Translations under genes and position numbers: made by a program
Origin: Candidatus Omnitrophota bacterium
GTDB lineage: Bacteria > Omnitrophota > Gorgyraeia > B26-G9
DNA: 64,000 nucleotides
Assembly (NCBI GenBank): GCA_043805415.1
Contig: JAZDHZ010000034.1
Coordinates: forward strand, 37,478-101,477
Direction: 5' to 3'
The notes under the pieces: model-generated
What the model saw: only the letters and a program-made list of their open reading frames with translations
Told to the model about the DNA's origin: nothing
Databases searched by the model: none
Shown here: one piece after another, positions 4,624 to 57,827 of the stretch
Position numbering within the stretch: position 1 is the first letter of the stretch
Layout: every line of letters starts with the position of its first letter

Positions 4624-4639
4624 ACCTTGTGTTACTATA

Positions 4640-4666
4640 TTAGCACTCTTGTATGGAGAGTGCTAA
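4640..4666 (+). promoter_or_regulatory. CIRCE operator (HrcA binding site) TTAGCACTC-N9-GAGTGCTAA
   Basis: This is a perfect 9-N9-9 inverted repeat 12 nt upstream of the hrcA GTG start. It is preceded by a TACTATAT -10-like hexamer. Confidence 0.85.
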
Positions 4667-4678
4667 AGCGGAGCAAGC

Positions 4679-5744: not shown

Positions 5745-6341
5745 ATGAGTAAAGAACACAATAAAAAAGAAAATAAAGAAGAAGATAAACAACTTGATAT
5801 GGAAGAAAACCAACAACAGGACGCGGAAGAACAAATTATCTCAATTCCCAAAGCTGAGTATGAGCAATTACAGCTGAGCAGGGATAATGCTGCCGCGGCT
5901 CTTGAGAAAATGCTAAGGATTCAGGCTGATTTTGAAAATTCCAGAAAACGGCTTGAACGGGATAAAACTGATTTTATTAAATACGCGAATGATCAGATAA
6001 TCAGTCAATTAATTCCGTTTGTTGATGATTTTAAACGCGCCTTTGCCGCGGCTGACCAGACAAAAGACTTTGAGGTTTTACACAAGGGCGTGGAGATGAT
6101 CTTAAAACACCTGATTGAATTGCTAAAACAAAAGGGAGTTACGGAAATCGAAGCAGTAGGGAAAAAGTTTGATCCGGCATTTCATGAAGCAATGCTCCAG
6201 GTTGAAACCGATGAACATCCGGAAGATACCATAGTTGAAGAATTTCAAAAAGGCTATCTTTTAAACGACAGAGTTTTGCGCGCGGCAAAAGTAAAAGTCG
6301 CCAAAGCAAAAGAACAAGAAAATAAAGAAGATAACATTTAA
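5745..6341 (+). CDS. grpE: nucleotide exchange factor GrpE
   Basis: It has an acidic N-terminus, a coiled coil and a GrpE C-terminal beta domain (DPAFHEAM..). Its operon position fits. Confidence 0.85.
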
Positions 6342-12807: not shown

Positions 12808-12843
12808 ATTAGCTAATAGCTGATGGCTCATAGCTAATGGTCA
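12808..12843 (+). repeat. degenerate TAGCTAATAG/TAGCTGATGG tandem repeat with stops in all three frames
   Basis: The sequence ATTAGCTAATAGCTGATGGCTCATAGCTAATGGTCA lies immediately after the HD gene stop. The same family occurs at 12951-12973, 13239-13284 (inverted), 32179-32211 and 39335-39381. Confidence 0.6.
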
Positions 12844-13238
12844 AAAGCAGAGAACAGAAAACGGAAGACATAAAACAAATTACTAATTACTAATTTCTAA
12901 ACTCTAAATAAACTCAAATGACTAAAGCCGAAAACACAGAAAGAGCACTTGGCTAATAGCCGATAGTCAATGGTTTGGCAAAAATTCTCTTTGAGCGGCG
13001 CTTTCGAACGTAATTTTGACATGGAGGGCAAAATAGTGAGAACGCGCGGCTGAGACTGCACGATGCAGACTCAGGCTTAGCGAAAAGACGTGTTTTTGCC
13101 GGTAACCAGTTACGTGAGCAGCGATTAGGAAAAGCAAGAAGACAGAAAACAGAAAAAAGCAGCGAATCGGGATTAGGACTTAGGAATTGCAATTGTCCTG
13201 TGACCTTGTGACTGGTGACCTTGTGACCGAAAGTTTTT

Positions 13239-13284
13239 AACTATTGACTATTAGCTATTGACTATTAACTATCGACTATCAATG
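13239..13284 (-). repeat. inverted copy of the TAGCTAATAG-type degenerate repeat
   Basis: AACTATTGACTATTAGCTATTGACTATTAACTATCGACTATCAATG is the reverse complement of the unit family seen at 12808. It lies just upstream of greA. Confidence 0.55.
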
Positions 13285-21077: not shown

Positions 21078-22043
21078 TTATAATGTATTTAGCTTCAGGA
21101 GGTTTTCTTTGATTTCATTTTTAGGCGCTGGACAGACATTGTTTTTTGAGAGTATAGCCTGCCCTGATTCGCTGAACTCAAACTTTAGGAATTCTTTAAC
21201 CGCTGGAGTCAGATTGTCAGTAGTTATGTATTGAAACAATTTCCTTTTCAGAGGATAAATGCCTTTTTTGATTACTTCTTGATCAAATGGGTTAAGGGGC
21301 GTGAATCCTGTTTTGAACGCTAAATTAACGGCAGCGATTGAGGGATCTTTTGCATAGGCTAATCCGACAAATCCAATTGCCGATACATCACTTTTAAGCT
21401 TCTCTGTTTCGCTAGCGTCAGTTAGCTGCCGCATTGATTCGTCGTACGCGGCAATGTTCAGCTTTTGTTGAAAAAATAAGGCTTGCGCGGAAGTTAATTC
21501 TCTTCCCAAAAGAACAATCGGACAGTCATCTCCCCCAACTTGTTTCCAGTTTTTTATTTCACCGGTGTAGATTTGCCGTACCTGTTCCATGGTAAGGGTT
21601 TTTATTGGATTCGCTTCATTAACAACAACGCAAAGATTATCATGCGCCAGCACTAATTCAATATACCTGCGGTCGCTTTCCATCAGAGCCCGGATGTCTG
21701 AGGCCTGCATCTGGGAGGAAGCATTGGCAATCGTTATTGTACCTTGTTTTAACTGACTAATTGCCTCTTCTGTAGTGCCGCCCTTAACGTCAATCCGGGT
21801 GGAGGCATTGGCAATCGTTATCGTACCTTGGTTTAATTGACTGATTCCCACGTCCGTGGTACCGCCCTTAACATCAATTTTTATTTCAGGATGCGTGGCA
21901 AGATAATTAGCTGCTAAAATTTCAACAATCTTGACCATGGATTCTGATCCGGCGATTTTAATATCCTCTGCGCGGGTAGTTTCAATGTTTACGGCTAAAA
22001 ACAAGACAATTAGTAAAAAGTTCACGAAATAATTATTTTTCAT
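21078..22043 (-). CDS. periplasmic substrate-binding protein (PstS-like PBP fold) containing a 28-aa tandem duplication
   Basis: It has a signal peptide and PBP-like motifs. The start was moved to the ATG (rc 22041-22043) preceded by GGAGG. An internal 84-bp tandem repeat spans ~21721-21888. Confidence 0.45.
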   Translation of the reverse strand: MKNNYFVNFLLIVLFLAVNIETTRAEDIKIAGSESMVKIVEILAANYLATHPEIKIDVKGGTTDVGISQLNQGTITIANASTRIDVKGGTTEEAISQLKQGTITIANASSQMQASDIRALMESDRRYIELVLAHDNLCVVVNEANPIKTLTMEQVRQIYTGEIKNWKQVGGDDCPIVLLGRELTSAQALFFQQKLNIAAYDESMRQLTDASETEKLKSDVSAIGFVGLAYAKDPSIAAVNLAFKTGFTPLNPFDQEVIKKGIYPLKRKLFQYITTDNLTPAVKEFLKFEFSESGQAILSKNNVCPAPKNEIKENLLKLNTL

Positions 22044-22383
22044 CTCTAATTCCTCCGATATATTATTATTAGCACAAAAAAAAATAATTTCAAGCAATAA
22101 AAAAGTCTATTCAGCTATTTTTATTTTTGGAATATCTTCAATCCGGTAGAAAAATATATTAGCAAATTTTTCAAAAGTGTGGTATATTTAAATCAAGAGG
22201 ATAGACGAGCAGTAAAGTACGTTTAATGTTTGGATTTTGAATAAGTTCGGAAATTTAAGTGTAACAACCTCGTCTGTCCTCGTTTTTTTATGCCCAAATC
22301 ATATTAAGATTTTACGTATTGCGCCGTGAGTCGTGCGTATCGCGTAAAAGCCCCAATTTATCTATAGCTTTTGTTTCTATCCG

Positions 22384-32168: not shown

Positions 32169-32178
32169 AAAGCACTTT

Positions 32179-32211
32179 TAGCTCATAGCTGATAGCTCAT
32201 GGCTCATAGCA
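32179..32211 (+). repeat. degenerate TAGCTCATAG/TAGCTGATAG repeat (three-frame stop family)
   Basis: TTAGCTCATAGCTGATAGCTCATGGCTCATAGC starts 10 nt after the cutA stop. Confidence 0.6.
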
Positions 32212-32260
32212 AAAGCAAAAAAACAAAATAAAGTATAAAGTTGAAAACGCGATAAAGTAA

Positions 32261-39133: not shown

Positions 39134-39331
39134 ATGGCGCATCCAAAACGGAAACATTCTAAAACCAGGCGTGATACAAAACGGGCTTCAAACTCAAAAT
39201 TAGATACACCAGGCAGTTCATTATGTCCGGCCTGCAATCAGCCTAAACCAGCGCACCATATCTGTCCGCAGTGCGGAGAATATAAAGGGATTAAGTACAT
39301 AGTAAAAAAAGAAAAAGAACCGAAAAAGTAA
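39134..39331 (+). CDS. rpmF: 50S ribosomal protein L32
   Basis: It has the N-terminus MAHPKRKHSKTRRD and CPACNQ..CPQCG. Confidence 0.9.
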   Translation: MAHPKRKHSKTRRDTKRASNSKLDTPGSSLCPACNQPKPAHHICPQCGEYKGIKYIVKKEKEPKK

Positions 39332-39334
39332 GAA

Positions 39335-39381
39335 CTAATGGCTAATAGCTAATGGTCAATAGCTGATAGTTAAGAGCTAAG
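39335..39381 (+). repeat. degenerate TAATGGCTAATAGCTAATGGTCAATAGCTGATAG repeat (three-frame stop family)
   Basis: It starts 4 nt after the rpmF stop. Confidence 0.6.
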
Positions 39382-46044: not shown

Positions 46045-47232
46045 ATGGCGATTGAAATTATTGTACAAAAATGTGTTGGTTGTCGGTTGTGCGTAAAAGC
46101 ATGTCCTTTTGCCGCGATTGATATGGTTAATAATGTCGCGGAAATTAATGATAATTGTACTTTATGCGGTGCCTGCGTTGACAGCTGTAAGTTTGACGCG
46201 ATTTTACTGCGCAAAACCGAGGAAGTCTCAGTTTCTCTGGATGATTATCAGGATGTCTGGGTTTTTGCTGAGCAGAAAAAAGGCGTGATTCAGTCAGTTG
46301 TTTTTGAATTACTTGGCGAAGGCAAGAAACTCGCTCAGAAAAGAAATCAGAATTTAGCCGCGGTTTTAATCGGTCATAAATTAAAAGACGCTGCCAAGCA
46401 ATTAATTGAACGTGGAGCTGATAAGGTTTATGTAATTGACGCTCCTGAGCTTAAACATTATCAGGCAGATACTTATGCCAAAGTACTGACCAGTGTGATT
46501 GAACAGTATAAACCGGAGATTGTATTAACCGGCGCGACTTCCATTGGCCGGGCTTTGATTCCGCGCGTGGCTGTTGAACTTAAGACAGGGCTGACAGCGG
46601 ATTGTACTGCTTTGGATATTGATGAAGAAAAAGGCATGCTTTTGCAGACTCGTCCGGCATTTGGCGGAAATATCATGGCCACAATCATCTGCCCGTCACG
46701 CCGTCCGCAAATGGCAACTGTGCGCCATAAGGTTATGCAGGAAGCTGTGATTGATAAAACCAATAAAGGCGAGATTATTGAAATCAAGCCGAAAAAAGAG
46801 TTATTAACTTCCAGAACTAAATTAATTGATTTAATTGAAGACATGGAAGAAACAATGAATATCGCTGAAGCTGATATTATTGTTTCCGGCGGCAGAGGCA
46901 TGGGCAAGGCTGAGAACTTTAAAATATTAGAAGAGTTTGCCAAAGCAATCGGCGGAGCAGTCGGAGCATCGCGCGCCGCGGTTGACAGCGGATTTATTCC
47001 CTATTCCCATCAGGTCGGACAAACTGGCAAAACCGTTTGCCCGAAAATCTATTTTGCCTGCGGTATTTCCGGCCAGATCCAGCATCTAGTCGGCATGCAG
47101 TCATCAGACATCATCGTAGCGATCAACAAAGACCCTGATGCCCCGATATTCAAGCTGGCGACCTACGGCATCGTCGGAGACTTATTTGAAGTAATACCCA
47201 TGCTGACCAAAAAATTCGCGAAAAAGAAGTAA
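46045..47232 (+). CDS. etfA: electron transfer flavoprotein alpha subunit with N-terminal 2x[4Fe-4S] ferredoxin domain
   Basis: The N-terminus has CVGCRLCVKACP and CTLCGACVDSC. The EtfA FAD-binding C-terminus follows. Confidence 0.85.
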   Translation: MAIEIIVQKCVGCRLCVKACPFAAIDMVNNVAEINDNCTLCGACVDSCKFDAILLRKTEEVSVSLDDYQDVWVFAEQKKGVIQSVVFELLGEGKKLAQKRNQNLAAVLIGHKLKDAAKQLIERGADKVYVIDAPELKHYQADTYAKVLTSVIEQYKPEIVLTGATSIGRALIPRVAVELKTGLTADCTALDIDEEKGMLLQTRPAFGGNIMATIICPSRRPQMATVRHKVMQEAVIDKTNKGEIIEIKPKKELLTSRTKLIDLIEDMEETMNIAEADIIVSGGRGMGKAENFKILEEFAKAIGGAVGASRAAVDSGFIPYSHQVGQTGKTVCPKIYFACGISGQIQHLVGMQSSDIIVAINKDPDAPIFKLATYGIVGDLFEVIPMLTKKFAKKK

Positions 47233-47289
47233 GATCAACGGATTCAAACACAGAAAGACGTGTAAGATGAGCGTTAAGATCAATAGCCA

Positions 47290-47327
47290 AAAAGCAATTC
47301 CTTAAGAAAGGAATTGCTTTTTTTTGT
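47290..47327 (+). terminator. intrinsic terminator after etfA
   Basis: AAGCAATTCCTT-aagaa-AGGAATTGCTT is followed by T7. A second GC-rich palindrome GGCCAGGTC-GAG-ACCTGGCC lies at 47369-47389. Confidence 0.7.
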
Positions 47328-47439
47328 TCACCATGGATAAATAAATGAATATAAAACAAAATCCCGTAGGGCCAGGTCGAGACCTGGCCGAAACATAATC
47401 AAAAAATATGGCCGAAACAAATAAATTAGAAGAAGTAAA

Positions 47440-47450
47440 GGGGACGGTTC
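47440..47450 (+). repeat. GGGGACGGTTC(C/T)ATTT repeat family member
   Basis: Related copies occur at 48514, 49099 and 49897. The copies at 49099 and 49897 are each followed ~25 nt later by a GGGGTCAAGTCTCTA element. Confidence 0.7.
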
Positions 47451-47580
47451 TATTTAATTGAGAGAGTGGCGTTCCTCCGTCGTGCTTGTTCCTCGGTTTA
47501 TAAGGCGGGGCTATCCGTTTCTAAACCAAAGAAAATTAGATCACTTGGTTTTGAAGATGGATAACGTTGCGTGTTTACTC

Positions 47581-47625
47581 GTGAGCGGGGACGTTGTTTG
47601 ATAAATTGATTTATTTAAATAGTGA
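47581..47625 (+). repeat. 45-bp perfect direct repeat copy 1 (GTGAGCGGGGACGTTGTTTGATAAATTGATTTATTTAAATAGTGA)
   Basis: It is identical to 48463-48507. Similarity continues for a further ~40 nt (AAGGGGAYGGTT..TTTTTGG). Confidence 0.9.
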
Positions 47626-47742
47626 AAAAACTAAAAGGAATAAAGGGGATGGTTTTGTTTTTGGTAAACCATAAAATTTGCTTCCCGCATAAATCGGCGG
47701 GGCAAGCTGTTTGCCCTTCGACAAACTCAGGGTAAAAGCGCA

Positions 47743-47748
47743 AACGTT
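47743..47748 (+). promoter_or_regulatory. weaker AAACGTT upstream motif (GCGCAAACGTTATGTGAG) 22 nt before the RDD gene start
   Basis: It shares the CAAACGTTAT core with the motifs at 57828, 58159, 59755 and 60764. Confidence 0.35.
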
Positions 47749-47769
47749 ATGTGAGAAAAAATAATAAAT

Positions 47770-48483
47770 ATGAAAAAAGACTATAAAGAAAAAATATCGC
47801 AGTATACATTGGAAGAACTTATGGATGTTTCCATTCATATTGATAAGGAAAAGTTTCCTGATAGGTATGAAATGATTATTGCGGAGATTGAAGTTAGGAA
47901 GAATCAGCCAAAGGGTAGTTCAGAAGAACAAGATAAAAAACAAAGAATTTTTGCTGGATTCTGGATTAGATTTTGGGCATATGTTTTAGACATAATCCCG
48001 GTGCTATTATTATGGGTATTTTTATATAGGTTTTATTTTCAAGCAAAATCGGTTGTTACTCTATATTATGGAGTTTTTCCTCTGGGCTGGATTGCTTACA
48101 GAATTTATTTTCATGGTAGATGGGGGCAAACACTTGGAAAAATGGCAATGAAAATAAAAGTAGTTAATGTTGACTTTGGCAAAATTGATTATTATGCTGC
48201 TTTTAAAAGAGAAATTGTTAATATATTGATTGATTTAATCACAATAATTGTTGTAGTTGCAGCAATGAAATCTATTCCTTCAGTAAACTGGCTAGTTATG
48301 CCAGAAATAGAAAAGCAAAATGTAATTTTAAGGGCAAAAGATAAAATTAGTTTTATTGGATTGTTCTGGTTATATGCTGATATTATTTGTTTATTAATTA
48401 ATAAGCAAAAACGGTCGATACACGATTTTATTGGAAGCACAATAGTTGTAAGAGAAGAAGTAGTGAGCGGGGACGTTGTTTGA
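47770..48483 (+). CDS. RDD-family membrane protein
   Basis: It has the motifs WIRFWAYVLD, GQTLGKMAMKIKVV and RSIHDFIGSTIVV, with three to four TM helices. Confidence 0.6.
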   Translation: MKKDYKEKISQYTLEELMDVSIHIDKEKFPDRYEMIIAEIEVRKNQPKGSSEEQDKKQRIFAGFWIRFWAYVLDIIPVLLLWVFLYRFYFQAKSVVTLYYGVFPLGWIAYRIYFHGRWGQTLGKMAMKIKVVNVDFGKIDYYAAFKREIVNILIDLITIIVVVAAMKSIPSVNWLVMPEIEKQNVILRAKDKISFIGLFWLYADIICLLINKQKRSIHDFIGSTIVVREEVVSGDVV

Positions 48484-48507
48484 TAAATTGATTTATTTAA
48501 ATAGTGA
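48463..48507 (+). repeat. 45-bp perfect direct repeat copy 2, overlapping the last 7 codons of the RDD gene
   Basis: It is identical to 47581-47625. It encodes the ..VVSGDVV* tail of the RDD gene. Confidence 0.9.
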
Positions 48508-48580
48508 TTTTAAGGGGACGGTTATATTTTTTTGGAATAAATATATATATTTATTCATTCCAAACAAGAAGGAGAGCAAA

Positions 48581-49027
48581 ATGAAGAAGGTGATAGGTTT
48601 TATGGTCACAGTATTAGTGTTGGCAACGGGCATCGCATATGCTGCCATAGAAGAATATTATGAAGAAAAACCTTTAAAGATTCAGAAAGCTGACCCTTTT
48701 GATAATGACAAACAAATAAAAATTCGAGTGGGCGAAAAGATCATATTCAAAATCAAGATATATCAGGATGAATTCTTTGGCCAGACTACTATTAGTGCAA
48801 ATGCTAATATTGACAATACAACCAAACAGAAAGTCAAAGCCATCTATTCAATCTCGTTTCATGATAAGGATGGCAAGCTTGTCGCATGTCACCAGGGATC
48901 ATGGGACCTCGATGAAAATGATGATGTAAATTACGGAAGTGGCATTATCTACACAGATACCGCTTCGATTGCATCAGTTACAAATTACAAATTAAAAACA
49001 CAGGTGATTGAATCTAAAAAGGAATGA
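48581..49027 (+). CDS. small secreted protein of unknown function
   Basis: It has an AAGGAG RBS and a signal peptide (MKKVIGFMVTVLVLATGIAYA). The tracked ORF is longer, but the upstream part covers repeat DNA. Confidence 0.35.
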   Translation: MKKVIGFMVTVLVLATGIAYAAIEEYYEEKPLKIQKADPFDNDKQIKIRVGEKIIFKIKIYQDEFFGQTTISANANIDNTTKQKVKAIYSISFHDKDGKLVACHQGSWDLDENDDVNYGSGIIYTDTASIASVTNYKLKTQVIESKKE

Positions 49028-49098
49028 CCAAAAAAAGTGTAAATGGAGTCAGGTCTTGAATCTAGATAATGGACGAAAAAAGCAAAAAAAGGGGAAAA

Positions 49099-49151
49099 GG
49101 GGACGGTTCCATTTTCGGAGGAAAAACAGAGGGTCAAGTCTCTACTTGACT
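49099..49151 (+). repeat. composite repeat: GGGGACGGTTCCATTTTCGG followed by the palindrome GGTCAAG-tctcta-CTTGAC
   Basis: It is nearly identical in layout to 49897-49950. Confidence 0.7.
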
Positions 49152-49230
49152 ACAAGTAAAATTTATTGAGAAAGAGTGGAAGGCTAGGGGACGTAGTGAG
49201 CTAACCCGGGATTGACGGACACCAAGAAAA

Positions 49231-49268
49231 GGGGTCAAGTCTGTAATCTTGATATTTTTATAAACGTT
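49231..49268 (+). repeat. GGGGTCAAGTCTGTAATCTTGATATTTTTATAAACGTTTGACAC element
   Basis: It belongs to the GGGGTCAAGTCT family. It contains an AAACGTT core 43 nt upstream of the ATG at 49311. Confidence 0.7.
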
Positions 49269-49298
49269 TGACACTAATTTTTGTTTTAGCTTAAAGGT

Positions 49299-49829
49299 TT
49301 GATAGATAAAATGAGAGAAATTTATTACGCGATCTATAAAAATGCTGATTATAAAACAATGGTTATGGTAAGCTTAGCCGAAGCAATCATCTCCAAAAGA
49401 GGCAGATTTAATAAAGATAAATTTATTTTAAGTGATGAAATAGGTTTAAATCGGTTTGAGAAACAAATTTTAAGTAAAATATGTTTAAATAACTTTTGTT
49501 ATTTTCATATTTCAGATTACACTAAATGGATTGATTATTTGATTCAAGAATGTATAAAAAATAAATATTTTAAGAAGCTGCTTGTCTTGGGGCCAAAGCC
49601 AACAAAATATTTTAAGACAGAATTAAAAAAAAATTTAAAAAATTTCAATGAGGATATTATTGCCTATATTGACTCAAGGGAAATTAATTTGTTAATGAAG
49701 ATTAATAAGTCTATTTCCCAAATTAAATTGCCTGAATTTAGACAATTAATCAAAAAAAAAGATATTATGGCTGAAATGATGGCTGAAGTTATGGATAAGG
49801 GGTATTGGCTCGAGGCAGATAAGTTGTAG
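49299..49829 (+). CDS. hypothetical protein (cytoplasmic, Lys-rich)
   Basis: This is an ORF only. The alternative ATG start is at 49311. No recognisable domain was found. Confidence 0.3.
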   Translation: MIDKMREIYYAIYKNADYKTMVMVSLAEAIISKRGRFNKDKFILSDEIGLNRFEKQILSKICLNNFCYFHISDYTKWIDYLIQECIKNKYFKKLLVLGPKPTKYFKTELKKNLKNFNEDIIAYIDSREINLLMKINKSISQIKLPEFRQLIKKKDIMAEMMAEVMDKGYWLEADKL

Positions 49830-49896
49830 CAATAAAAGAAGATATTGAGGGGCGTAGTTTAAAGATTTAAAGTTATAGAAACAATGAAGGAAAAAA

Positions 49897-49965
49897 GGGA
49901 CGGTTCCATTTTCGGTGAAAGATAAGGGGTCAAGTCTCTAATCCTGACATTTTTAACGCTTAATG
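49897..49965 (+). repeat. composite repeat: GGGACGGTTCCATTTTCGG + GGGGTCAAGTCTCTAATCCTGAC + AACGCTTAATGC
   Basis: See 49099. It lies 35-100 nt upstream of the ORF at 50000. Confidence 0.7.
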
Positions 49966-49999
49966 CTAATTTCGTAATTTAAAATTTAAAGGATGAGAA

Positions 50000-51202
50000 A
50001 TGAGAAGAGTATTGCTTGTAATTTTATTAATTGGTGTTTTTTGTCCGTTTTCTTTAGCTCAGGAGCAAAATTCTGATTTCGATTTTAAGATTTTCTTAAC
50101 TCAACAGAGTGAAGAAATGGATTGGTGGAATGGGGTTCCTTCTCAATTTGGTCCGCATATTTCTGAAGTCAGTAGTGTTTCTAAAAAAGAAATTTTTAAA
50201 ATAATACCTATTTTCCGTAATTACGGTCTTGAGGATGGGGAAAAAGCAAACATTATATATAATGTTTCTATTTTAAAGCCAGATAATAGTATTTATGCAG
50301 AGATAAATGATCTTGAGGGGTGGAAGGGTAAAGTTAATGGGCCGTATTTGTTACCAGCGAAAAATAGATTAGTGGTTTGTTTTGAGCCTGAGGACACATT
50401 CGGTGAATATGCTATAAGAATAGAATCTTTTGATAAAATTAAAGATCAGAAAGTAGCTCATGAAGACAAAATTAATCTAGAAGAGTTTAAATTGCCTGAT
50501 TTAAAAGATGATGTAGATCTGTTTTTTACGTACAACTATAATCCTGACCCTGAAAAAGCCATGGCTTATTTTTTGAATTCTGCATACCCGTTTATAAATG
50601 AAAAAGGGCAAGTTGTATGGTCTGGGATATGGTTTTTTAAATGTGTTTTTGATGAAAATGATTTTCTAATTCCCCAAATCGTAAAATTTTTTAAAGATGA
50701 AGCTACTAAAAAGCAGAAAGAGAATATAATTTTACTATTCTATTTTTTAGGAAAAACGAAAGAGCTTGATTTAAAAGGGGATTTAGTAAAATATAGTGAA
50801 GGGTTTAAAAAAATAAAGGCTCCAAATCCTTACGATAAAATAGATAATCCTAGTCAGCTGGATATGCTATGGGGAGAGTTTTTTGCTACTGGTAGATTAA
50901 AACCAGTAAGGCAGATTATATCTTCATTCCAGCTTAGTGAATTCATGGGGACATTGGAAAAAATTAAGAAAAAAGAACTAGATGTTAATGAAAAATCTGT
51001 GTACCGCGAAGCAATGCTTGAAGCTACTTTCAGTTCTGCCCTTTGGTCTTTAGAAAGTAATTGCAATCAATCGAGCTTACTATATCAATATTGCGTTGGA
51101 CTTATTGAGTCTGATGAATTAAATGATAATGAAAAAGGCTATTTAGGAGCTATTTTAAACAGTGTATATGAGAAGAAGAAAAAAGAAGACAGAAAAGAAT
51201 AA
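50000..51202 (+). CDS. secreted hypothetical protein (400 aa)
   Basis: It has a signal peptide (MRRVLLVILLIGVFCPFSLAQE). No recognisable domain was found. Confidence 0.35.
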   Translation: MRRVLLVILLIGVFCPFSLAQEQNSDFDFKIFLTQQSEEMDWWNGVPSQFGPHISEVSSVSKKEIFKIIPIFRNYGLEDGEKANIIYNVSILKPDNSIYAEINDLEGWKGKVNGPYLLPAKNRLVVCFEPEDTFGEYAIRIESFDKIKDQKVAHEDKINLEEFKLPDLKDDVDLFFTYNYNPDPEKAMAYFLNSAYPFINEKGQVVWSGIWFFKCVFDENDFLIPQIVKFFKDEATKKQKENIILLFYFLGKTKELDLKGDLVKYSEGFKKIKAPNPYDKIDNPSQLDMLWGEFFATGRLKPVRQIISSFQLSEFMGTLEKIKKKELDVNEKSVYREAMLEATFSSALWSLESNCNQSSLLYQYCVGLIESDELNDNEKGYLGAILNSVYEKKKKEDRKE

Positions 51203-51220
51203 TAGGGTCAAATAAGAAAA

Positions 51221-51265
51221 GGGATCAAGTCTGTAATCTAGATATTTCCCTAAACGTTCAACGTT
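51221..51265 (+). repeat. GGGATCAAGTCTGTAATCTAGATATTTCCCTAAACGTTCAACGTT element
   Basis: It belongs to the GGGGTCAAGTCT family and has a doubled AACGTT core. It lies 27-40 nt upstream of the ATG at 51292. Confidence 0.7.
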
Positions 51266-51291
51266 AATTTTTACTCAAGTTTAAATGTTAT

Positions 51292-51885
51292 ATGCAAAAA
51301 ATAATAAAAATTACTTTTTTTGTCATTTTTTTTCAAAATGTCCTATGCAATCAGATATTTTGTTCTGAGAAATCACCTGAGCCGTTTGGGGTGGATGACA
51401 TTACACTTGCGGTCACAAATGGGCAGCCGTATATTTATCAGGCTGAAATTTCTGCTGAAAAAAAACTGCATAAATACCTTTGGCTAAGATGTGGGTTAGC
51501 AGGCATATTTGATTCCAATAAACCTGATCTGTTTGGAGGTATTACGCTGGGAGTCAGATTACATGGAAAGGCTTTTTTTGCTCCTTTTGTAGGAATCGGA
51601 AGTTTTTTGGGTGAATCTGCTCATTATAAAGATGCCGATCATGACGGAATTAACAATGACGGCGATGCCTGGACGGATGAACCGGGTGAGAAAAAAAGAG
51701 TTAATAACTTTATTTCTGCAATTTATCCTGAGATTGGTATGCAGATTAATATAGCCAAAGAAAAGAGTATTTCCGCTTTTGGAAGATATTATGTTTCAAC
51801 TGAGGGAAGAGATGATGATTCCTGGATGTGGGGATTTAGTTTTTCGGTTAAATTTGGGGCAGGCCTAAAAAATGAAAAAGATTGA
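51292..51885 (+). CDS. secreted protein with thrombospondin-type-3-like Asp-rich Ca-binding motif (DADHDGINNDGDAWTDE); possible small OM beta-barrel
   Basis: It has a signal peptide, a C-terminal aromatic residue (..FSVKF) and a DxDxDG motif. Confidence 0.3.
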   Translation: MQKIIKITFFVIFFQNVLCNQIFCSEKSPEPFGVDDITLAVTNGQPYIYQAEISAEKKLHKYLWLRCGLAGIFDSNKPDLFGGITLGVRLHGKAFFAPFVGIGSFLGESAHYKDADHDGINNDGDAWTDEPGEKKRVNNFISAIYPEIGMQINIAKEKSISAFGRYYVSTEGRDDDSWMWGFSFSVKFGAGLKNEKD

Positions 51886-52071
51886 CGAATTAAAAAAACT
51901 AGAGTCTTCAGAGGAGATTTTCCTAAGCGCTTAACGCTATCCGCTAAACACTGATTTTGCGGTTTTTTTTGGTAAATCATAAAATTTAGTGAAATAGGGG
52001 GCGTTGATTCAAACATATATAAAAGAAAATTATAGAGAAATAATAGTGTCAGATATTGAAAAAGGAGACAA

Positions 52072-52581
52072 GTGATGAATGAAAATCATCAAACAAATAA
52101 TAAAGGAATGTCTGATCTGGAGATAAAATCCCTTATCGTTAAACGCAATAATGATGCGCAGGAAATCGTTCGATCCCTAAATTCTCAGAGCATTATTAAT
52201 CATTTAATGAGTTCTGATCTAGCAACAAGTATGAGTATGAGTATATGGCTTGGACTGCATGATAATTTTAACTGTGCCCGAGGTCTTTTAGTTCATGTTC
52301 GATCAAAAGAATCCGAGCTAGTTTCTGATGCATATAAATCTTCGGGGGAAATTGTTGGACGATTCCGTTGTAATAACTGTGGTTTTGAGACTGGACTCGG
52401 AGTAAAATACTTTCAACAAAGGATAACCAAAGGAGAGCTTAGCTCTCCGATTAAACCTGAAGATCTTTTTCTTGGTGCAGCAGCTAGAAAATTATCGCAG
52501 CAAGTAATTGATCTACGTAGAGCACAAATTGAATCTCTTCGTTTAAAAGGATCGGACAAGGATGTTTTTCCCTCTCTCTAG
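52072..52581 (+). CDS. hypothetical protein
   Basis: This is an ORF with a GGAGA RBS. It contains an RCNNCG motif. No recognisable domain was found. Confidence 0.3.
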   Translation: MMNENHQTNNKGMSDLEIKSLIVKRNNDAQEIVRSLNSQSIINHLMSSDLATSMSMSIWLGLHDNFNCARGLLVHVRSKESELVSDAYKSSGEIVGRFRCNNCGFETGLGVKYFQQRITKGELSSPIKPEDLFLGAAARKLSQQVIDLRRAQIESLRLKGSDKDVFPSL

Positions 52582-52708
52582 GGAAAGGGGTCAAGTCTGT
52601 AATCTCAACATTTCTCTAATAGAAAGCAACGGTTAAAGGGGTTAAAAAGTGCCCGAATTATTGAGCTAGTACAACATCGCATAAAATTACAGTGGAATAG
52701 AACTAGAG
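52582..52708 (+). repeat. 127-bp perfect direct repeat, copy 1 (begins GGAAAGGGGTCAAGTCTGTAATCTCAAC)
   Basis: It is 100% identical to 57625-57751. A further shared TGAAAACTG follows a 10-bp indel. It starts right at the stop codon of the preceding ORF. Confidence 0.9.
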
Positions 52709-52724
52709 TGAAAACTGCGTAAGC

Positions 52725-52740
52725 GGGGTCAAACCTTGAC
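52725..52740 (+). repeat. GGGGTCAAACCTTGAC palindromic element
   Basis: It is a GTCAA-acc-TTGAC palindrome of the same family. Confidence 0.6.
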
Positions 52741-52783
52741 TTTGGACAAAATGTGAAATATCAGGCGTGATAATAACTTCTAA

Positions 52784-53026
52784 AGTGGAGGTCTGACCCT
52801 GAGATTTTATGGGGAGATACCGGCGACAACTAAAGAGTCGGACGCTATGAGTAAAGCGCTGAAAAATAATAACTTTAAATTTGTCGGATCAACAATTTGT
52901 TACGCGTTTATGCAGGCAGTAGGGATGGTCAATGACCATTTAACTACATGTTATAGATATAATAGAGTACCTAAGGCAAAAAAACAGCGGTTAACGGATA
53001 GGGATAGGAGAAAAATAGTTGGATGA
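52784..53026 (+). pseudogene. tag: 3' remnant (~80 codons) of DNA-3-methyladenine glycosylase I gene
   Basis: The in-frame translation ..ESDAMSKALKNNNFKFVGSTICYAFMQAVGMVNDHLTTCY.. matches the Tag C-terminus (SDALSKALKKRGFKFVGTTICYSFMQACGLVNDH). There is no N-terminal two-thirds. Its stop overlaps the treZ start. Confidence 0.7.
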
Positions 53027-54849
53027 ACAAAAAAATAGGCGCTAACTATACAAATAATAATATCTGCGAATTCTCTGTATGGGCTCCTTTAAAAGAGGAT
53101 ATCTCGCTTCATATCCTTTCTGATAAGCAAAGGATTATTCCGATGCAGAAAGACGCGGACGGATATTTTAGCGTTACTGTTGATGAAGTTGTCCCGGGTA
53201 CAAAATATCTTTTTCACCTTGAAGCTAATAGCGAGTATCCGGATCCCGCGTCATTCTATCAACCGGACGATGTAATGGGCCCTTCTTGTGTTGTTGACCA
53301 TTCGGCCTTTGTCTGGGATGATAAAAATTGGCAGGGATGCTTGGCCGCGGAAATGATTATTTATGAGCTGCATGCCGGGACATTTACGCCAGAAGGAACA
53401 TTTGATGGGATCATTACAAAGCTTTCGCATTTGCAGGATTTGGGGGTTAATACAATCGAAATCATGCCGGTGGCTCAATTTCCCGGAACAAGAAACTGGG
53501 GATATGATGGGGTTTATCCTTTCGCCGTACAAAATTCATACGGCGGCCCAGCCGGGTTAAAAAGGCTGGTTAACGAATGCCACAAACGAAAAATAAGCGT
53601 TATTCTTGACGTTGTTTATAATCATTTTGGCCCGGAAGGGAATTTCTTGCGTCAATATATGCCGTGTTTTACGGATAAATATAAAACAGCGTGGGGCGAG
53701 GCAATCAATTTTGATGATGCCTACAGTTATGGAGTTAGAGATTACTTTATTCAGAATGCTTTGTATTGGTTGGAACACTTCCACATGGACGCTTTAAGAC
53801 TGGACGCGGTTCATGGTATTTTTGATATGAGCGCGAAACATATTCTTAAAGAATTATCGGAAAAAGTGACGGAATTTTCACGATTAAAGCAAAGAAAATA
53901 TTACCTAATTGCTGAGAGTGATTTAAATGACAGACGCGTCATAGATCCTGACTCCAAAGGCGGCTATGGGCTGGACGCGCAGTGGAACGATGATTTTCAT
54001 CATTGCCTGCATACGCTTTTGACAAAAGAAAATCAGGGATATTACGAAGATTTCGGACAGGTTGAACAAATGGCTAAAGCGCTAAAACAAGGATTTGTTT
54101 ATTCGTGGGATTATTCGAAATTCCGGAAAAGATATCACGGAAGCGCATCAACAGATATTTCTGCCGGCCAGTTTGTTGTTTTTTCTCAAAACCACGATCA
54201 AATCGGCAACCGCGTGAAAGGTGAACGGCTTTCCGCGCTGGTTTCTTTTGAGGCTTTGAAAGTTGCCGCCGGGACTGTCCTTCTGTCCGCGAATATTCCT
54301 TTATTATTTATGGGAGAAGAATACGGCGAGAACGCGCCGTTTCTCTATTTCATGAGTTTTCATGATAAGCAGTTGATTGAGGCGATTCGCGCCGGGAGAA
54401 AAAAAGAGTTTGCTTCATTTAATTGGCAGGGCGAACCGGATGATCCGTACGCTGAAGAAACATTTTTAAAATCAAAATTAAAATGGGATATAATTAAGAA
54501 TGAGAAACAGCGTGTTCTGTTGGAATTTTATAAGAAATTGATTCAGATAAGAAAATCGGCCGGGAGCTTGTTTGCGAAAGCTATTCTTGAGGTCAATGCC
54601 GATGAAGAAACTAAAGTAATTTCTATAACGCGTTTACAAAAACAAGCAGGGCTTCATCTCGCGATAAATTTTCACAATAAAAATGCCGCGTATACGTCTC
54701 TAAAGCTTGAGGGACAGTGGAAAAGATTGCTTGTCTCATCGGATATTAAGTGGTTAGGGCCAGGGACAAATGTTCCGGAAAAGGCCGTCAATAACGGAGA
54801 ATTTATTTTGGAACCTTTTAGTTTAATAGTATTTGAGAAAAAACAGTGA
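53023..54849 (+). CDS. treZ: malto-oligosyltrehalose trehalohydrolase (GH13)
   Basis: It has an N-terminal CBM48-like region (FSVWAP). Catalytic regions include DVVYNHFGPEG, GFRLDAVH-like DALRLDAVHG, EEYGENAPF and QNHDQIGNR. Confidence 0.9.
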   Translation: MNKKIGANYTNNNICEFSVWAPLKEDISLHILSDKQRIIPMQKDADGYFSVTVDEVVPGTKYLFHLEANSEYPDPASFYQPDDVMGPSCVVDHSAFVWDDKNWQGCLAAEMIIYELHAGTFTPEGTFDGIITKLSHLQDLGVNTIEIMPVAQFPGTRNWGYDGVYPFAVQNSYGGPAGLKRLVNECHKRKISVILDVVYNHFGPEGNFLRQYMPCFTDKYKTAWGEAINFDDAYSYGVRDYFIQNALYWLEHFHMDALRLDAVHGIFDMSAKHILKELSEKVTEFSRLKQRKYYLIAESDLNDRRVIDPDSKGGYGLDAQWNDDFHHCLHTLLTKENQGYYEDFGQVEQMAKALKQGFVYSWDYSKFRKRYHGSASTDISAGQFVVFSQNHDQIGNRVKGERLSALVSFEALKVAAGTVLLSANIPLLFMGEEYGENAPFLYFMSFHDKQLIEAIRAGRKKEFASFNWQGEPDDPYAEETFLKSKLKWDIIKNEKQRVLLEFYKKLIQIRKSAGSLFAKAILEVNADEETKVISITRLQKQAGLHLAINFHNKNAAYTSLKLEGQWKRLLVSSDIKWLGPGTNVPEKAVNNGEFILEPFSLIVFEKKQ

Positions 54850-57617
54850 AAGTACCTATTAGCACATATCGAATTCAATTTCACGCCGGCTTTACGTTTG
54901 AATCGGCTGCCGGCATATCGCGGTATTTGAAGGATCTGGGGGTATCGCATATTTACGCGTCGCCGATTCTTCAAGCCAAGAAGGGGAGCATGCACGGTTA
55001 TGATGTTGTTGATCCCCTTCAGATCAACCCGGAATTGGGCGGAGAAGAAAAATTTAACCGGCTTATTGAGCAGGTTAGGGCTCTGAATATGGGGTGGCTT
55101 CAGGATATTGTGCCTAATCACATGGCGTTTGACAGTGAAAACAAGATGTTGATGGATGTTTTTGAGAAAGGTGAGGCGTCCCAATTTTTTGATTATTTTG
55201 ACATTAACTGGAATCATCCTTACTTAAACTTAAAAGGAAAGGCATTGACGCCTTTTTTGGGAGATTTCTACGGCAATTGTCTTAAAAAAGGTGAAATAGT
55301 TGTCGGGATAGATGAGAATGGATTTTTTATTAAGTACTATGAATTGAAATTACCGGTACTGTTATCCTCCTACGCCGGAATTCTCAGAGGATGTCTTGAT
55401 TTATTAGAACACGCGGATAATCACACGACAGACGAGGCGGATCAATTCAATCACGCGATTGGGATTTTTAAGGCTTTAAACCAGCGTGACAATCAGGCGG
55501 TGACTGTTGCCAAAGCCGGCCTTTGGCGCGTGTTTACGAAAGATAAAAGAGTTGAAAAAACTATCGCCAGTTTCCTAGAGAAAATGAATAATGGAAAAAC
55601 GGATTCATTAGACCTGCTTCACAATCTAATCTCTGATCAACTCTTTCGTCTTTCTTTCTGGAAAGTAGGTAATGATGAGTTAAATTACAGGAGGTTCTTC
55701 ACGGTCAATTCCTTGATATGTTTAAGAGTGGAAGAATTCAGCGTCTTTGATTTTCTTCATAAGCGGATATCGGAGCTTGTTAATAATGGGCAAATAGACG
55801 GTATCAGGCTGGATCATATTGACGGTTTAGATTCTCCGCTTATTTATATGCGGCGGTTGAGGGAAAAAACAGGAGACCGGTATATTGTTGTGGAAAAGAT
55901 TCTTTGTAAAGATGAGCACCTGCCCGAGAATTGGCCGGTACAAGGAACGACGGGGTATGATTTCCTGAACTATGTTAATGGGGTTTTTGTTGACGCCGCG
56001 TCTGAACGCGCGATGGAAAGAATCTATATATCGTTTAGTGGTATGCGTTTTCGGTTTGAGTCGCTTGTCGTTGAAAAAAAACGGTTATTTATGGGAAAGC
56101 ATATGGCCGGCGATATCGATAATCTCGCCCATTTATTGAAAAATATTTTGAGTGGGAACATATATGGTTCTGATTTTACAATGTATGGGTTGCGCCGGGC
56201 TTTGGTCGAAATTATGGCGCATTTTCCGGTGTACCGAACTTATGCTTCGGAACTTGGGATAAGCGAGTCAGATATGTTTTATATTAAGCAGGCGCTGGAT
56301 AGAGCCCGGAGGACAGGGCAAGACCTTTTATATGAATTAGACGCGATTGAAAAAATCCTTTCTTTGGATTCCGCGCTTAATATAAACGACGCGGAAAAGG
56401 AAAAATACCGTCATTTTACGAAAAGATTTCAGCAGTTTACCGGCGCTCTGATGGCCAAAGGCTCAGAAGACACCGCGGATTATATTTTTAACCGTTTCAT
56501 ATCGCTGAATGAAGTAGGCGGGTTTCCGGAAAAGTTTGGCCTGGCATTAGGAGATTTTCACGAATTTAATGTTAAACGACTGAAAGACTGGCCGTATTCA
56601 ATGAGCGCGACGGCAACACATGATACCAAACGGGGAGAAGATGTCAGGGCGCGGATTAATGTGCTTTCTGAAATGCCGGAAGAATGGAAAAATATCGCAA
56701 AATTATCACATAAGCAAAATAAGAAGCACAAATCGAAAATCGGTCATGAGCTCGCGCCCGGCAAAAATGATGAATATCTTATTTATCAGACGTTCATTGG
56801 CGCTTTTCCATTTAAACCAGAGGAAGCAGAAAATTTTAAGGAAAGGATGAAGCAATATATCGTTAAAGCTGTTCGTGAAGCGAAGCTTCATACGGCATGG
56901 CTGAAACCAGACACACAATATGAGGAGGCCTGCGTCAAGTTCATTGATAGAATTTTAGATTCTTCAAGTGAAAATCAATTCCTGAATAATTTTATTCCTT
57001 TTCAAAGAAAAGTAGCATATTTTGGGATGTTTAATTCTTTGTCCCAGACACTTCTTAAATTAACAGCACCGGGTATACCCGATATCTATCAAGGCAATGA
57101 ATTGTGGGATTTTAATTTGGTTGATCCTGATAACAGAAGGCCGGTTGATTTTGAGAAACGTAAGCAATTTCTTAATGAGATACAAGGTAAAGAGAACGAT
57201 TTATCACCTCTGATCAAGGAATTGCTTGCCCACAAAGAAGACGGAAGAATAAAGATGTTCACGCTCTACCGTCTTTTGAAGGCAAGAAATGAATTTAGCG
57301 AATTATTTCAGAACGGCGAATATATCCCTCTTGAGGTCAAGGGGGCATTACAAAACCACATTATTGCTTTTGCCCGCAGAAAGGACAATAGCTGTTGTGT
57401 TGTCATCGCTCCGCGATTTTTATCAAAGGTTGTTAAAGAGAATGAGTTGCCTTTGGGAGAAACGGTCTGGCAGGATACAGCGATCATTTTACCCGAAGGA
57501 TTTCCGTCAGAATGGAGAGATATCCTAACCGGGGAAAGCCAGCGAGCGGAAGGGATTATCTTTATAGGAAAGGTTTTAAAGATTCTTCCGGTCAGTTTAT
57601 TGTCTTTGCATGAATAA
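54846..57617 (+). CDS. treY: malto-oligosyltrehalose synthase (GH13)
   Basis: It has the N-terminus ISTYRIQFHAGFTF..LGVSHIYASPILQA..GSMHGYDV and DGIRLDHIDGL. Length is 923 aa. Confidence 0.9.
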   Translation: MKVPISTYRIQFHAGFTFESAAGISRYLKDLGVSHIYASPILQAKKGSMHGYDVVDPLQINPELGGEEKFNRLIEQVRALNMGWLQDIVPNHMAFDSENKMLMDVFEKGEASQFFDYFDINWNHPYLNLKGKALTPFLGDFYGNCLKKGEIVVGIDENGFFIKYYELKLPVLLSSYAGILRGCLDLLEHADNHTTDEADQFNHAIGIFKALNQRDNQAVTVAKAGLWRVFTKDKRVEKTIASFLEKMNNGKTDSLDLLHNLISDQLFRLSFWKVGNDELNYRRFFTVNSLICLRVEEFSVFDFLHKRISELVNNGQIDGIRLDHIDGLDSPLIYMRRLREKTGDRYIVVEKILCKDEHLPENWPVQGTTGYDFLNYVNGVFVDAASERAMERIYISFSGMRFRFESLVVEKKRLFMGKHMAGDIDNLAHLLKNILSGNIYGSDFTMYGLRRALVEIMAHFPVYRTYASELGISESDMFYIKQALDRARRTGQDLLYELDAIEKILSLDSALNINDAEKEKYRHFTKRFQQFTGALMAKGSEDTADYIFNRFISLNEVGGFPEKFGLALGDFHEFNVKRLKDWPYSMSATATHDTKRGEDVRARINVLSEMPEEWKNIAKLSHKQNKKHKSKIGHELAPGKNDEYLIYQTFIGAFPFKPEEAENFKERMKQYIVKAVREAKLHTAWLKPDTQYEEACVKFIDRILDSSSENQFLNNFIPFQRKVAYFGMFNSLSQTLLKLTAPGIPDIYQGNELWDFNLVDPDNRRPVDFEKRKQFLNEIQGKENDLSPLIKELLAHKEDGRIKMFTLYRLLKARNEFSELFQNGEYIPLEVKGALQNHIIAFARRKDNSCCVVIAPRFLSKVVKENELPLGETVWQDTAIILPEGFPSEWRDILTGESQRAEGIIFIGKVLKILPVSLLSLHE

Positions 57618-57624
57618 GTTTGCA

Positions 57625-57751
57625 GGAAAGGGGTCAAGTCTGTAATCTCAACATTTCTCTAATAGAAAGCAACGGTTAAAGGGGTTAAAAAGTGCCCGAA
57701 TTATTGAGCTAGTACAACATCGCATAAAATTACAGTGGAATAGAACTAGAG
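57625..57751 (+). repeat. 127-bp perfect direct repeat, copy 2
   Basis: It is identical to 52582-52708. It starts 8 nt after the treY stop. Confidence 0.9.
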
Positions 57752-57827
57752 GGTCAGGCATTGAAAACTGAAGACTAAAAACAATTGGAAATGCAGGCAA
57801 TCAAATAACGCTGTGCGTTTCTTCTGC

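Follow-up and report, generated by a model that had tools for sequence, protein, structure and literature searches.

A 64-kb stretch of DNA from Candidatus Omnitrophota bacterium (contig JAZDHZ010000034.1, positions 37,478 to 101,477; 64,000 nucleotides, hereafter the window) contains a 45-bp perfect direct repeat that brackets a gene for an RDD-family membrane protein. Both 45-mers are copies of a module that we term M1, the core of which is 39 nt long. Judged from its aligned copies, M1 is near-invariant and comes first in an intergenic repeat that is modular, low in copy number and fixed in orientation; it is followed by M2 and then by either M3a or M3b. On balance, we favour the reading in which M1 serves as the recognition end of either a non-autonomous mobile element or a junction element that recombination has spread, and in which the unit delimited by its two copies could be deleted or re-inserted. 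The original prediction had likened the repeat to the attC sites of integrons; this analogy fails on every defining feature that was testable here.

The 45-mer GTGAGCGGGGACGTTGTTTGATAAATTGATTTATTTAAATAGTGA occurs exactly twice in the window, both times on the plus strand (47581–47625 and 48463–48507), which confirms the predicted repeat and its coordinates. No third copy was found in the window at up to three mismatches, and no match is expected by chance (0 in 100 shuffles). The open reading frame (ORF) between the copies, 47770–48483 on the plus strand, encodes a complete RDD-family protein (Pfam PF06271, E 2e-22), residues 62–222 of its 237 matching profile positions 2–136/137. The protein ends in ...REEVVSGDVV*, the final six codons and the TGA being supplied by M1 copy 2; the proposal that the second copy encodes the C-terminal end of the RDD protein therefore holds. 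The sole close match of this protein is an identical one in a Ca. Omnitrophota metagenome-assembled genome (MAG) at NCBI, and the next homologue is 31% identical. The comparison of contexts that the original prediction had proposed for the RDD gene was accordingly made with the repeat. Two further elements of the original prediction were also recovered. A looser extension, AAGGGGAYGGTT, follows both copies (47643 and 48512) with a 13–14-nt indel, and is additionally found at 47438, 49097 and 49894, every occurrence being on the plus strand. The palindrome placed at 48532–48559 exists as an AT-rich sequence at about 48531–48560 that folds into a DNA hairpin of about -8 kcal/mol.

Two perfectly identical copies at such short distance might reflect a tandem-type duplication of local origin, or an artefact in the assembly of this contig. 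However, the two window copies have unrelated sequence on their left sides in alignment, and separately assembled DNA from at least three other samples contains this repeat beside unrelated genes. Those copies exclude a local origin, and we give this explanation next to no credence.

The distribution of M1 was determined by scanning the GTDB representative-genome set and JGI metagenomes; copies in the genome under study were counted in the 64 kb of the window. A 24-mer of M1 gave four exact matches on three contigs of the Omnitrophota MAG JAHITY01, and a 22-mer matched six metagenome contigs, three from the JAHITY01 population (Ga0180007) and the rest from two further samples. In total, 11 non-redundant, near-identical copies were collected: two in the window, seven in the JAHITY population, one in L005 and one in L006/L007 (L004, L006 and similar designations are labels of comparison loci, 24 of which entered the profile search). 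The repeat is thus not unique to this locus, and its copies lie at unit boundaries, contrary to the pattern that would have refuted the original prediction; on other contigs it begins either at the ends of unrelated ORFs or a few bases inside them. All copies are on the gene strand. No inverted copy was detected in the window and the 24 loci, either at six or fewer mismatches in 39 nt or by nhmmer, and the profile search of the same sequences returned near-identical copies alone and none that had diverged. Viral contigs, phages and plasmids gave no match. The M1 family appears to be limited to a narrow clade of Candidatus Omnitrophota, and the gene contexts place M1 at junctions between accessory genes in variable islands.

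The left edge of the repeat is sharp in the 11-copy alignment, with (G/A)T(G/A)AG(C/T) abutting GGGGACG and the 39-nt M1 core. The core is followed by an A-rich linker and by M2 (AAAGGGGAYGG...TTTTGGTAAACCATAAAATTTGCT). In contrast to the left edge, the right side is a mosaic, with M2 leading into M3a, into M3b or into a truncation. M3a combines a CCCGC..GCGGG hairpin with ...AAGCTG...AAACGTTAT and reaches the next start codon; M3b reads AAGAAAACAGTTAATAGCTGATGGCTAATGG... The features of the window copies are as follows.

47581–47625, plus strand: M1 copy 1, comprising the 6-nt semi-conserved left flank GTGAGC and the 39-nt near-invariant core GGGGACGTTGTTTGATAAATTGATTTATTTAAATAGTGA (perfect repeat, 11-copy alignment)
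47626–47686, plus strand: A-rich linker and module M2 (AAAGGGGATGG...TTTTTGGTAAACCATAAAATTTGCTTC), with matches in L004, L008 and L009
47687–47769, plus strand: module M3a, a small CCCGC..GCGGG hairpin and then GCAAGCTGTTTGCC...AAACGTTAT, up to the RDD start codon
47770–48483, plus strand: RDD-family membrane protein gene (Pfam)
48463–48507, plus strand: M1 copy 2, cut straight after ...AATAGTGA and without the A-rich linker (alignment)
48508–48580, plus strand: shortened M2-like module (AAGGGGACGGTT at 48512–48523), AT-rich palindrome and the ribosome-binding site of the next gene

The linker and M2 of copy 1 are 89–95% identical over 96–106 nt to the copies in L004, L008 and L009 (blastn). 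L008 1000–1179, which is followed by an unrelated 130-aa gene, shares the window M3a, and L004 shares parts of it at 1993 and 4746. Besides window copy 2, which stops after ...AATAGTGA, truncations are found in L005 (inside M2) and in L006 (after 29 nt). Further modules, including one termed M4 and a GGGGTCAAGTCTGTAATC type (window positions 49224, 49919, 51214, 52580 and 57623), occur in genome-specific orders, and M1, M2, M3a, M3b, M4 and others are variously combined in the window and in L004, L005, L006, L008, L009, L018, L021 and L022. Short modules that are scattered over intergenic DNA and vary in their order, number and degree of truncation characterize mosaic intergenic repeats, and the M1 element accordingly shows the modular mosaic organization of the BOX, BIME and NIME type.

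The position of the left edge relative to coding sequence indicates how M1 is joined to its surroundings. Four unrelated ORFs enter M1 in the same frame and terminate at its TGA, so that their products all end in SGDVV or GGDVV: the RDD gene (...VVSGDVV*); a MORN-repeat protein cut in mid-repeat (L009 157–699, ...WADVSGDVV*); an 87-aa ORF (L006 351–614, ...LLSGDVV*); and, in L005, a fragment of a Y1 transposase that can be aligned with residues 83–120 of a 313-aa RAYT protein before it reads MGGDVV*. The last of these breaks at ...TRYM, within the catalytic-tyrosine motif, and the 3' remainder of the truncated gene is absent from the 1.6 kb downstream. In L004, the stop codon of ORF 3435–4748 falls on the first G of M1, and that of ORF 1359–1991 lies 1 nt before it. 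Because unrelated ORFs end in or at M1, its left edge is a real breakpoint joined to arbitrary DNA, often within genes. By hand count, the ORFs entering M1 are distributed 4:1:1 over the frames, a bias that is not significant (chi-square ~3, df 2). Stop codons in M1 close all three frames within 29 nt. A conserved leader peptide starting from a GTG in M1 was considered and rejected by eye, as indels in M2 shift the frame between copies. In annotation, ...SGDVV C-termini and short ORFs that run into M1 should be treated as junction products and not as native protein.

One half of the original prediction, a junction that straddles ORF ends, is borne out by these SGDVV* tails; the other half, membership of the attC class, is contradicted by folding, box motifs and the lack of an integrase. 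In an integron-like or other site-specific cassette system, M1 would be an attC-type site at the ends of mobile genes, and the setting has some of the expected traits: the small ORFs of the low-GC island all point one way, the repeat lies at gene boundaries elsewhere, and several ORFs end inside it. However, as single-stranded DNA, 47581–47700 folds no better than shuffled sequences (z -0.27 and -0.71 for the plus and minus strands). In the 48463–48580 region, only the separate AT palindrome pairs and M1 is essentially unpaired. A search of 47200–53100 for RYYYAAC...GTTRRRY (R''/R') pairs at 50–160 nt spacing found one weak candidate, inside the coding sequence of a tag gene remnant, and none at M1; across the whole window there was no good candidate. 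No integrase, tyrosine or serine recombinase or transposase was found by Pfam among the gene-like window ORFs of at least 120 aa. The array is also irregular, with M1 at 2 of the ~8 junctions between 47.2 and 57.8 kb and unrelated modules (GGGGTCAAGTCT-type or other) at the rest, and the copies are identical in sequence instead of similar in structure alone. We therefore regard a cassette system of this kind as very improbable.

M1 is exceptionally well conserved compared with its surroundings. Among the eight full copies, the 39-nt core has a mean pairwise identity of 96.3% and 5 variable columns out of 39, against 85.5% and 24 out of 60 for the linker and M2 (Fisher p=0.004 for variable columns); the 6 nt left of the core are 77% identical (3 of 6 columns variable) and the 20 nt upstream 25%. 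By comparison, the syntenic housekeeping backbone of the window and the JAHITY MAG is 81.6% identical over 11.2 kb, and the cores of both window copies are identical to those of five of the seven JAHITY copies and of the L005 copy. That the core exceeds the backbone suggests that it is either constrained in its own right or the part that a propagating copy must keep.

The first of these options is compatible with a regulatory function, in which M1-M2-M3a would be a portable expression linker or 'mobile promoter', with a site for a regulator or sigma factor in M1 and a structured 5' leader in M2-M3a, employed repeatedly in front of unrelated accessory genes, and the capping of ORFs would be a side effect. 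We consider this possible, if unlikely. Four full copies end within ~20 nt of the starts of unrelated genes (RDD, L008 1180, L004 2156 and L004 4903), every copy is co-oriented with genes, and M1 is more conserved than housekeeping coding DNA. Moreover, the CCCGC/GCGGG hairpin is kept while its loops vary, the genes that follow M3a lack good Shine-Dalgarno sequences, and PMC3575422 describes promoter reuse upstream of non-homologous genes. On the other hand, no sigma-70-like promoter was found in M1-M3. Rfam gave no match at E ≤ 1 in 46500–53500, and over the comparison loci at E ≤ 0.1 a single sub-threshold match, to REN-SRE in L004 (28 bits against a gathering score of 41). RNAalifold detected no compensatory pairs in the four full copies, which are too few to exclude a fold, and the window copy alone has z = -1.1. 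M1 also occurs without a following gene start, as at L008 765, where another M1 follows, and in L006, where it is truncated after 29 nt. Finally, a regulatory linker leaves unexplained why a RAYT gene and a MORN repeat are cut midway by the left edge.

Under the reading that we favour, a predicted recognition protein would act on the M1 end of a non-autonomous mobile element or of a junction element spread by recombination. Its left edge would be joined to arbitrary DNA, often in the 3' part of a gene, and the remainder of the element would fill the span up to the next start codon. In the window, direct M1 copies with 45 bp of perfect identity bracket an 882-bp unit, M2-M3a-RDD-M1; recombination between the two could delete or re-insert the RDD unit and leave a single intact M1 junction. 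Several points weigh against this proposal. No enzyme has been identified and no second (right) end of the M1 element is defined; neither a target-site duplication nor a pair of filled and empty sites was found at any M1 copy. The copy number is low (~7 in the JAHITY population and two in the 64-kb window), unlike in classical REP, BOX and MITE families, and strict co-orientation with genes together with the conservation of M1 fits a cis-regulatory role equally well. Furthermore, all sequences are metagenome assemblies, and for the genome under study they cover the 64-kb window.

The established classes of short mobile repeats were each compared with M1. M1 lacks the significant self-complementarity of a REP palindrome, and it is not abundant, with seven copies in the JAHITY/Ga0180007 population and copies on two other contigs in the scanned sets. 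Terminal inverted repeats of the MITE or DDE type are absent from M1 in the window and the 24 loci. The 38-bp inverted repeats of the Tn3 family resemble GGGG-led modules; M1 has neither an inverted partner nor the inner motif TAAG. As for target-site duplications, TGAGC is found to the left of M1 and again where full M1-M2-M3a copies end; it also occurs elsewhere, however, and the right end is a mosaic.

More explicit is a mechanism based on HUH enzymes (Y1, RAYT or IS200/IS605-like), by which elements starting with GGGG would insert in single-stranded form on the 3' side of a pentanucleotide resembling TGAGC, the mobile units being segments delimited by direct M1 copies. This would account for the single fixed orientation and for the lack of inverted repeats and target duplications, and the intermediate conservation of the 5–6 nt left of GGGG (77%, between 96% in the core and 25% further out) is as expected of a preferred target. 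Full elements end in ...CTGAGC/TAAAACGTTAT, the slash marking the junction, and uninterrupted CTGAGC/TCAAACGTTAT upstream of other genes resembles empty sites. A gene that qualifies as RAYT (L004 5295–6236; NCBIfam REP_Tyr_transpos, 82.2 bits against a cutoff of 80; Pfam Y1_Tnp match; DnaA-C-like tail) lies 0.4 kb downstream of one M1 element, and the Y1 fragment of L005 abuts another. However, the RAYT gene is flanked by a different repeat (GGGTCAGGC...) and not by M1: it is bracketed by 41-nt inverted repeats (5221–5261 and 6211–6251) with the core GGGTCAGGCACTGAAAGCTGAAA, an arrangement known for RAYT genes (PMC3733652). The window holds no RAYT gene and one solo copy of this flanking repeat (57751–57771), which abuts a 127-nt repeat described below. 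The Y1 fragment is a victim of truncation and provides no evidence that it mobilizes M1. In addition, the M1 hairpin is weak (5–6 bp, A/T), in contrast to the strong subterminal hairpins of IS200/IS605 or REP elements, the right ends are heterogeneous, and an IS3-like end in these genomes likewise begins with TGAGC. In sum, strand specificity is present and the left flank is semi-conserved as TRRGY, but hairpins are weak and a linked cognate tnpA is lacking, and we hold this mechanism to be doubtful. A related proposal, about as doubtful, is that M1 forms the recognition end of a gene shuttle that is not an integron: an enzyme (strand-specific and HUH-type, Y1/RAYT-like, or other) would cut at TGAGC/GGGG, and circles would re-insert 3' of TGAGC-like sites. 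Segments between direct M1 copies, the 882-bp RDD unit among them, would then leave as single-stranded circles, cap the ORFs in which they land and supply a leader to the next gene.

The M1 pair lies in an island downstream of etfA, in a window where nearly all genes are on the plus strand and the cumulative GC skew rises throughout. Besides the features listed above, the following are relevant to its boundaries and content.

47289–47322, plus strand: intrinsic terminator of etfA
47420–47580, plus strand: M2-like module and non-coding module M4, directly upstream of M1 copy 1
48581–49027, plus strand: gene for a 148-aa secreted or lipoprotein-like protein, 3' of M1 copy 2
52847–53026, plus strand: 5'-truncated remnant of a 3-methyladenine glycosylase gene (tag), right edge of the low-GC island

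The etfA gene ends at 47232 and is followed by a canonical terminator. From there to ~52.8 kb the GC content is 31–32%, against 41–45% in the backbone, and this low-GC stretch contains six small ORFs, most of which match no Pfam family and several of which have N-termini resembling signal peptides, before it ends at the tag remnant, which matches profile positions 140–176 of 177 alone (the last 37) of Pfam Adenine_glyco. The 3' flank of etfA (47244–47329) is 93% identical to L016/L017 and L020/L021; as the last conserved backbone, it defines the left boundary of the variable island. Five relatives, whose EtfA proteins are 87–93% identical, retain the gene order coaD-pta-ackA-yceD-rpmF-plsX-fabD-fabG-acpP-fabF-acd-etfB-etfA, and each of them has a different set of small plus-strand genes 3' of the etfA terminator: a TPR protein and an aldehyde dehydrogenase; AbiJ-like, OLD/TOPRIM and UvrD proteins; a DUF2971 protein; a SWIB protein. 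In MAG JAHITY01 this cargo includes an AbiJ-like gene and an OLD/TOPRIM-UvrD pair that resembles Gabija. Compared across L016–L024, the locus (window 47233–52800) appears as a hypervariable hotspot. Pieces of the short spacer of L021 are scattered over the window (47244–47326, 49138–49173 and 52768–52798), so the island looks like a series of insertions into an ancestral spacer. No tRNA or tmRNA genes, which could point to att-site remnants, were found in the window.

Individual genes of the island also have differing contexts. Window ORF 51292–51885 and L004 2156–2746 are orthologues with 87.6% nucleotide identity; the L004 gene is preceded by M1-M2-M3a and the window gene by a different module. 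The distance between this pair of orthologues and a second one is 0.7 kb in L004 and 11.4 kb in the window. For the 148-aa signal-peptide protein there are 47 homologues of 50–83% identity, including one of 76% in a Thermodesulfobacteriota MAG, and none of the homologues examined has M1 beside it; their contexts are unrelated to one another. This distribution is compatible with horizontal transfer of one small gene on its own.

The sequence upstream of M1 copy 1 does not support the suggestion that a former upstream unit ended with the same repeat. M4 (47436–47556) is homologous to intergenic DNA of two other genomes (L018 12364–12406 and 15022–15121; L022 4030–4090), and what lies 5' of copy 1 is thus a non-coding module. 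A 47-aa ORF (47458–47601) that reads into copy 1 was considered as a gene remnant and judged spurious, because it lies in this non-coding, intergenic stretch.

Other mobile-DNA traces were noted in and around the island. A 127-nt perfect direct repeat (52582–52708 and 57625–57751, 5043 nt apart) starts with a GGGGTCAAGTCTGTAATCTCAAC module; its first copy directly follows the stop codon of ORF 52072–52581, its second begins 7 nt after that of 54846–57617, and the pair encloses the tag remnant and two alpha-amylase-family genes of normal GC content. The sequence TGAGCTARCCCGGGATTGACGGACAC (window 49197–49235; L017 6834, L022 6175 and L018 20296) resembles the left end of an IS3-family insertion sequence. 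In L018 an HTH_Tnp_1 orfA begins ~60 nt after this end, and the window keeps a ~37-nt remnant alone. Because the end abuts a G-rich module, mostly of the GGGG[AT]C type, in four of four genomes, the IS3-like element may target these repeat modules. A 9-nt match, GTAGTGAGC, between the RDD end and 49193–49201 was tried as a target duplication and rejected, since the TGAGC at 49197 belongs to the IS3-like end that is conserved in the four genomes. On the minus strand, 49131–49153 reads GTAG-TCAAGT-AGAG-ACTTGA-CCC, a canonical GTAG-tagged, REP-like small palindrome, part of which (49138–49173) is shared with the etfA-downstream spacer of L021.

Further repeats and signals were also noted. The motif (C)TGAGCTCAAACGTTAT precedes the start codons of many unrelated genes by 15–45 nt (window 47745, 57830 and 58160; L004 3410 and 4880; L008 1925; L013 ~790, a locus that carries no M1) and could be a promoter, leader or processing signal of the lineage. 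Heptad-like AGCTNATGGCTNATAGC repeats, which also form the core of M3b, are present in housekeeping intergenic DNA (12814–12851, 13230–13270, 32176–32227 and 39329–39380); at 12.8–13.3 kb they flank a GC-richer segment in inverted, MITE-like orientation. In a related MAG, a ~250-nt GC-rich intergenic repeat without an Rfam match lies upstream of genes (L008 1600–1950, L009 ~1984–2244 and L018 12214–12266), and its tail AACATCGCATAAAATTMCAGTGG recurs inside the 127-nt repeat of the window. Elsewhere in the window, dnaK (6368–8253) is split into the overlapping ORFs 6368–6679 and 6598–8253 by a frameshift or assembly error near 6600, and a minus-strand PBP-like gene (21078–22097) contains an 84-nt tandem duplication (21709–21876, 83% identical).

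Omnitrophota are uncultivated, and the literature that we searched held nothing on how their accessory genes shuffle. M1 marks precise junctions in the hotspot 3' of etfA, where one relative carries a Gabija-like OLD/UvrD defence pair and the window carries orphan secreted proteins. If M1 is indeed a recognition end, it would represent a route of single-gene mobilization that is invisible to IntegronFinder, to IS and MITE finders and to Rfam. A regulatory M1 would define a small regulon of horizontally acquired genes, and a gene shuttle would amount to an accessory-gene cassette system in Omnitrophota with an integron-like outcome and an unrelated mechanism.

Comparison with known systems helps to place the repeat. 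Like integron attC sites, M1 lies at the boundaries of small co-oriented genes, contains their stop codons and brackets a one-gene unit with direct copies; unlike them, it has no imperfect-palindrome hairpin, R''/R' boxes or integrase, its copies share their sequence, and most junctions lack it. PMC3575422 also reports reused, 'putative mobile' promoters, near-identical regions upstream of non-homologous genes within and between genomes, to which M1-M3 are similar; however, M1-M3 contain no recognizable promoter, and M1 is also present where no gene start follows. REP units are 20–40-nt palindromes tagged on one side with GTAG (or CGTC) (PMC3733652). The clade shares with REP/REPIN-RAYT systems a RAYT gene with 41-nt inverted repeats, solo intergenic copies of these and GTAG-tagged small hairpins, whereas M1 itself is neither palindromic nor abundant, lacks a GTAG/CGTC tag at the base of a hairpin and is not the repeat that flanks RAYT.

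The closest parallels are mosaic repeats. In Neisseria intergenic mosaic elements (NIMEs), 20-bp inverted dRS3 repeats flank RS units, and such arrays and 'minimal mobile elements' may provide portable homology for gene exchange. The dRS3 repeat has been equated with CGTC-1 repeats (PMC3733652). M1 likewise occurs in mosaic intergenic arrays beside surface or accessory genes, at hotspots between conserved genes, but its arrays are direct and have no inverted dRS3-type flanks. BOX elements of Streptococcus pneumoniae (boxA-boxB(n)-boxC) and the BIMEs of E. coli are dispersed intergenic repeats built from short modules. The M1 element resembles both in its modules of 40–60 nt, in their variable order and number, and in its dispersed intergenic location near gene ends, where it is probably co-transcribed, and in each case mobility is inferred. 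It differs in having no sequence relationship to either and ~7–10 copies of M1 per genome in place of more than 100, and in being strictly co-oriented with genes and non-palindromic, with an edge that lies inside the 3' ends of ORFs and truncates some of them. By this analogy, M1 is best read as working like the BOX, BIME and NIME mosaic repeats, and the repeat that it leads appears to be a new low-copy family of modular intergenic repeats in Omnitrophota.

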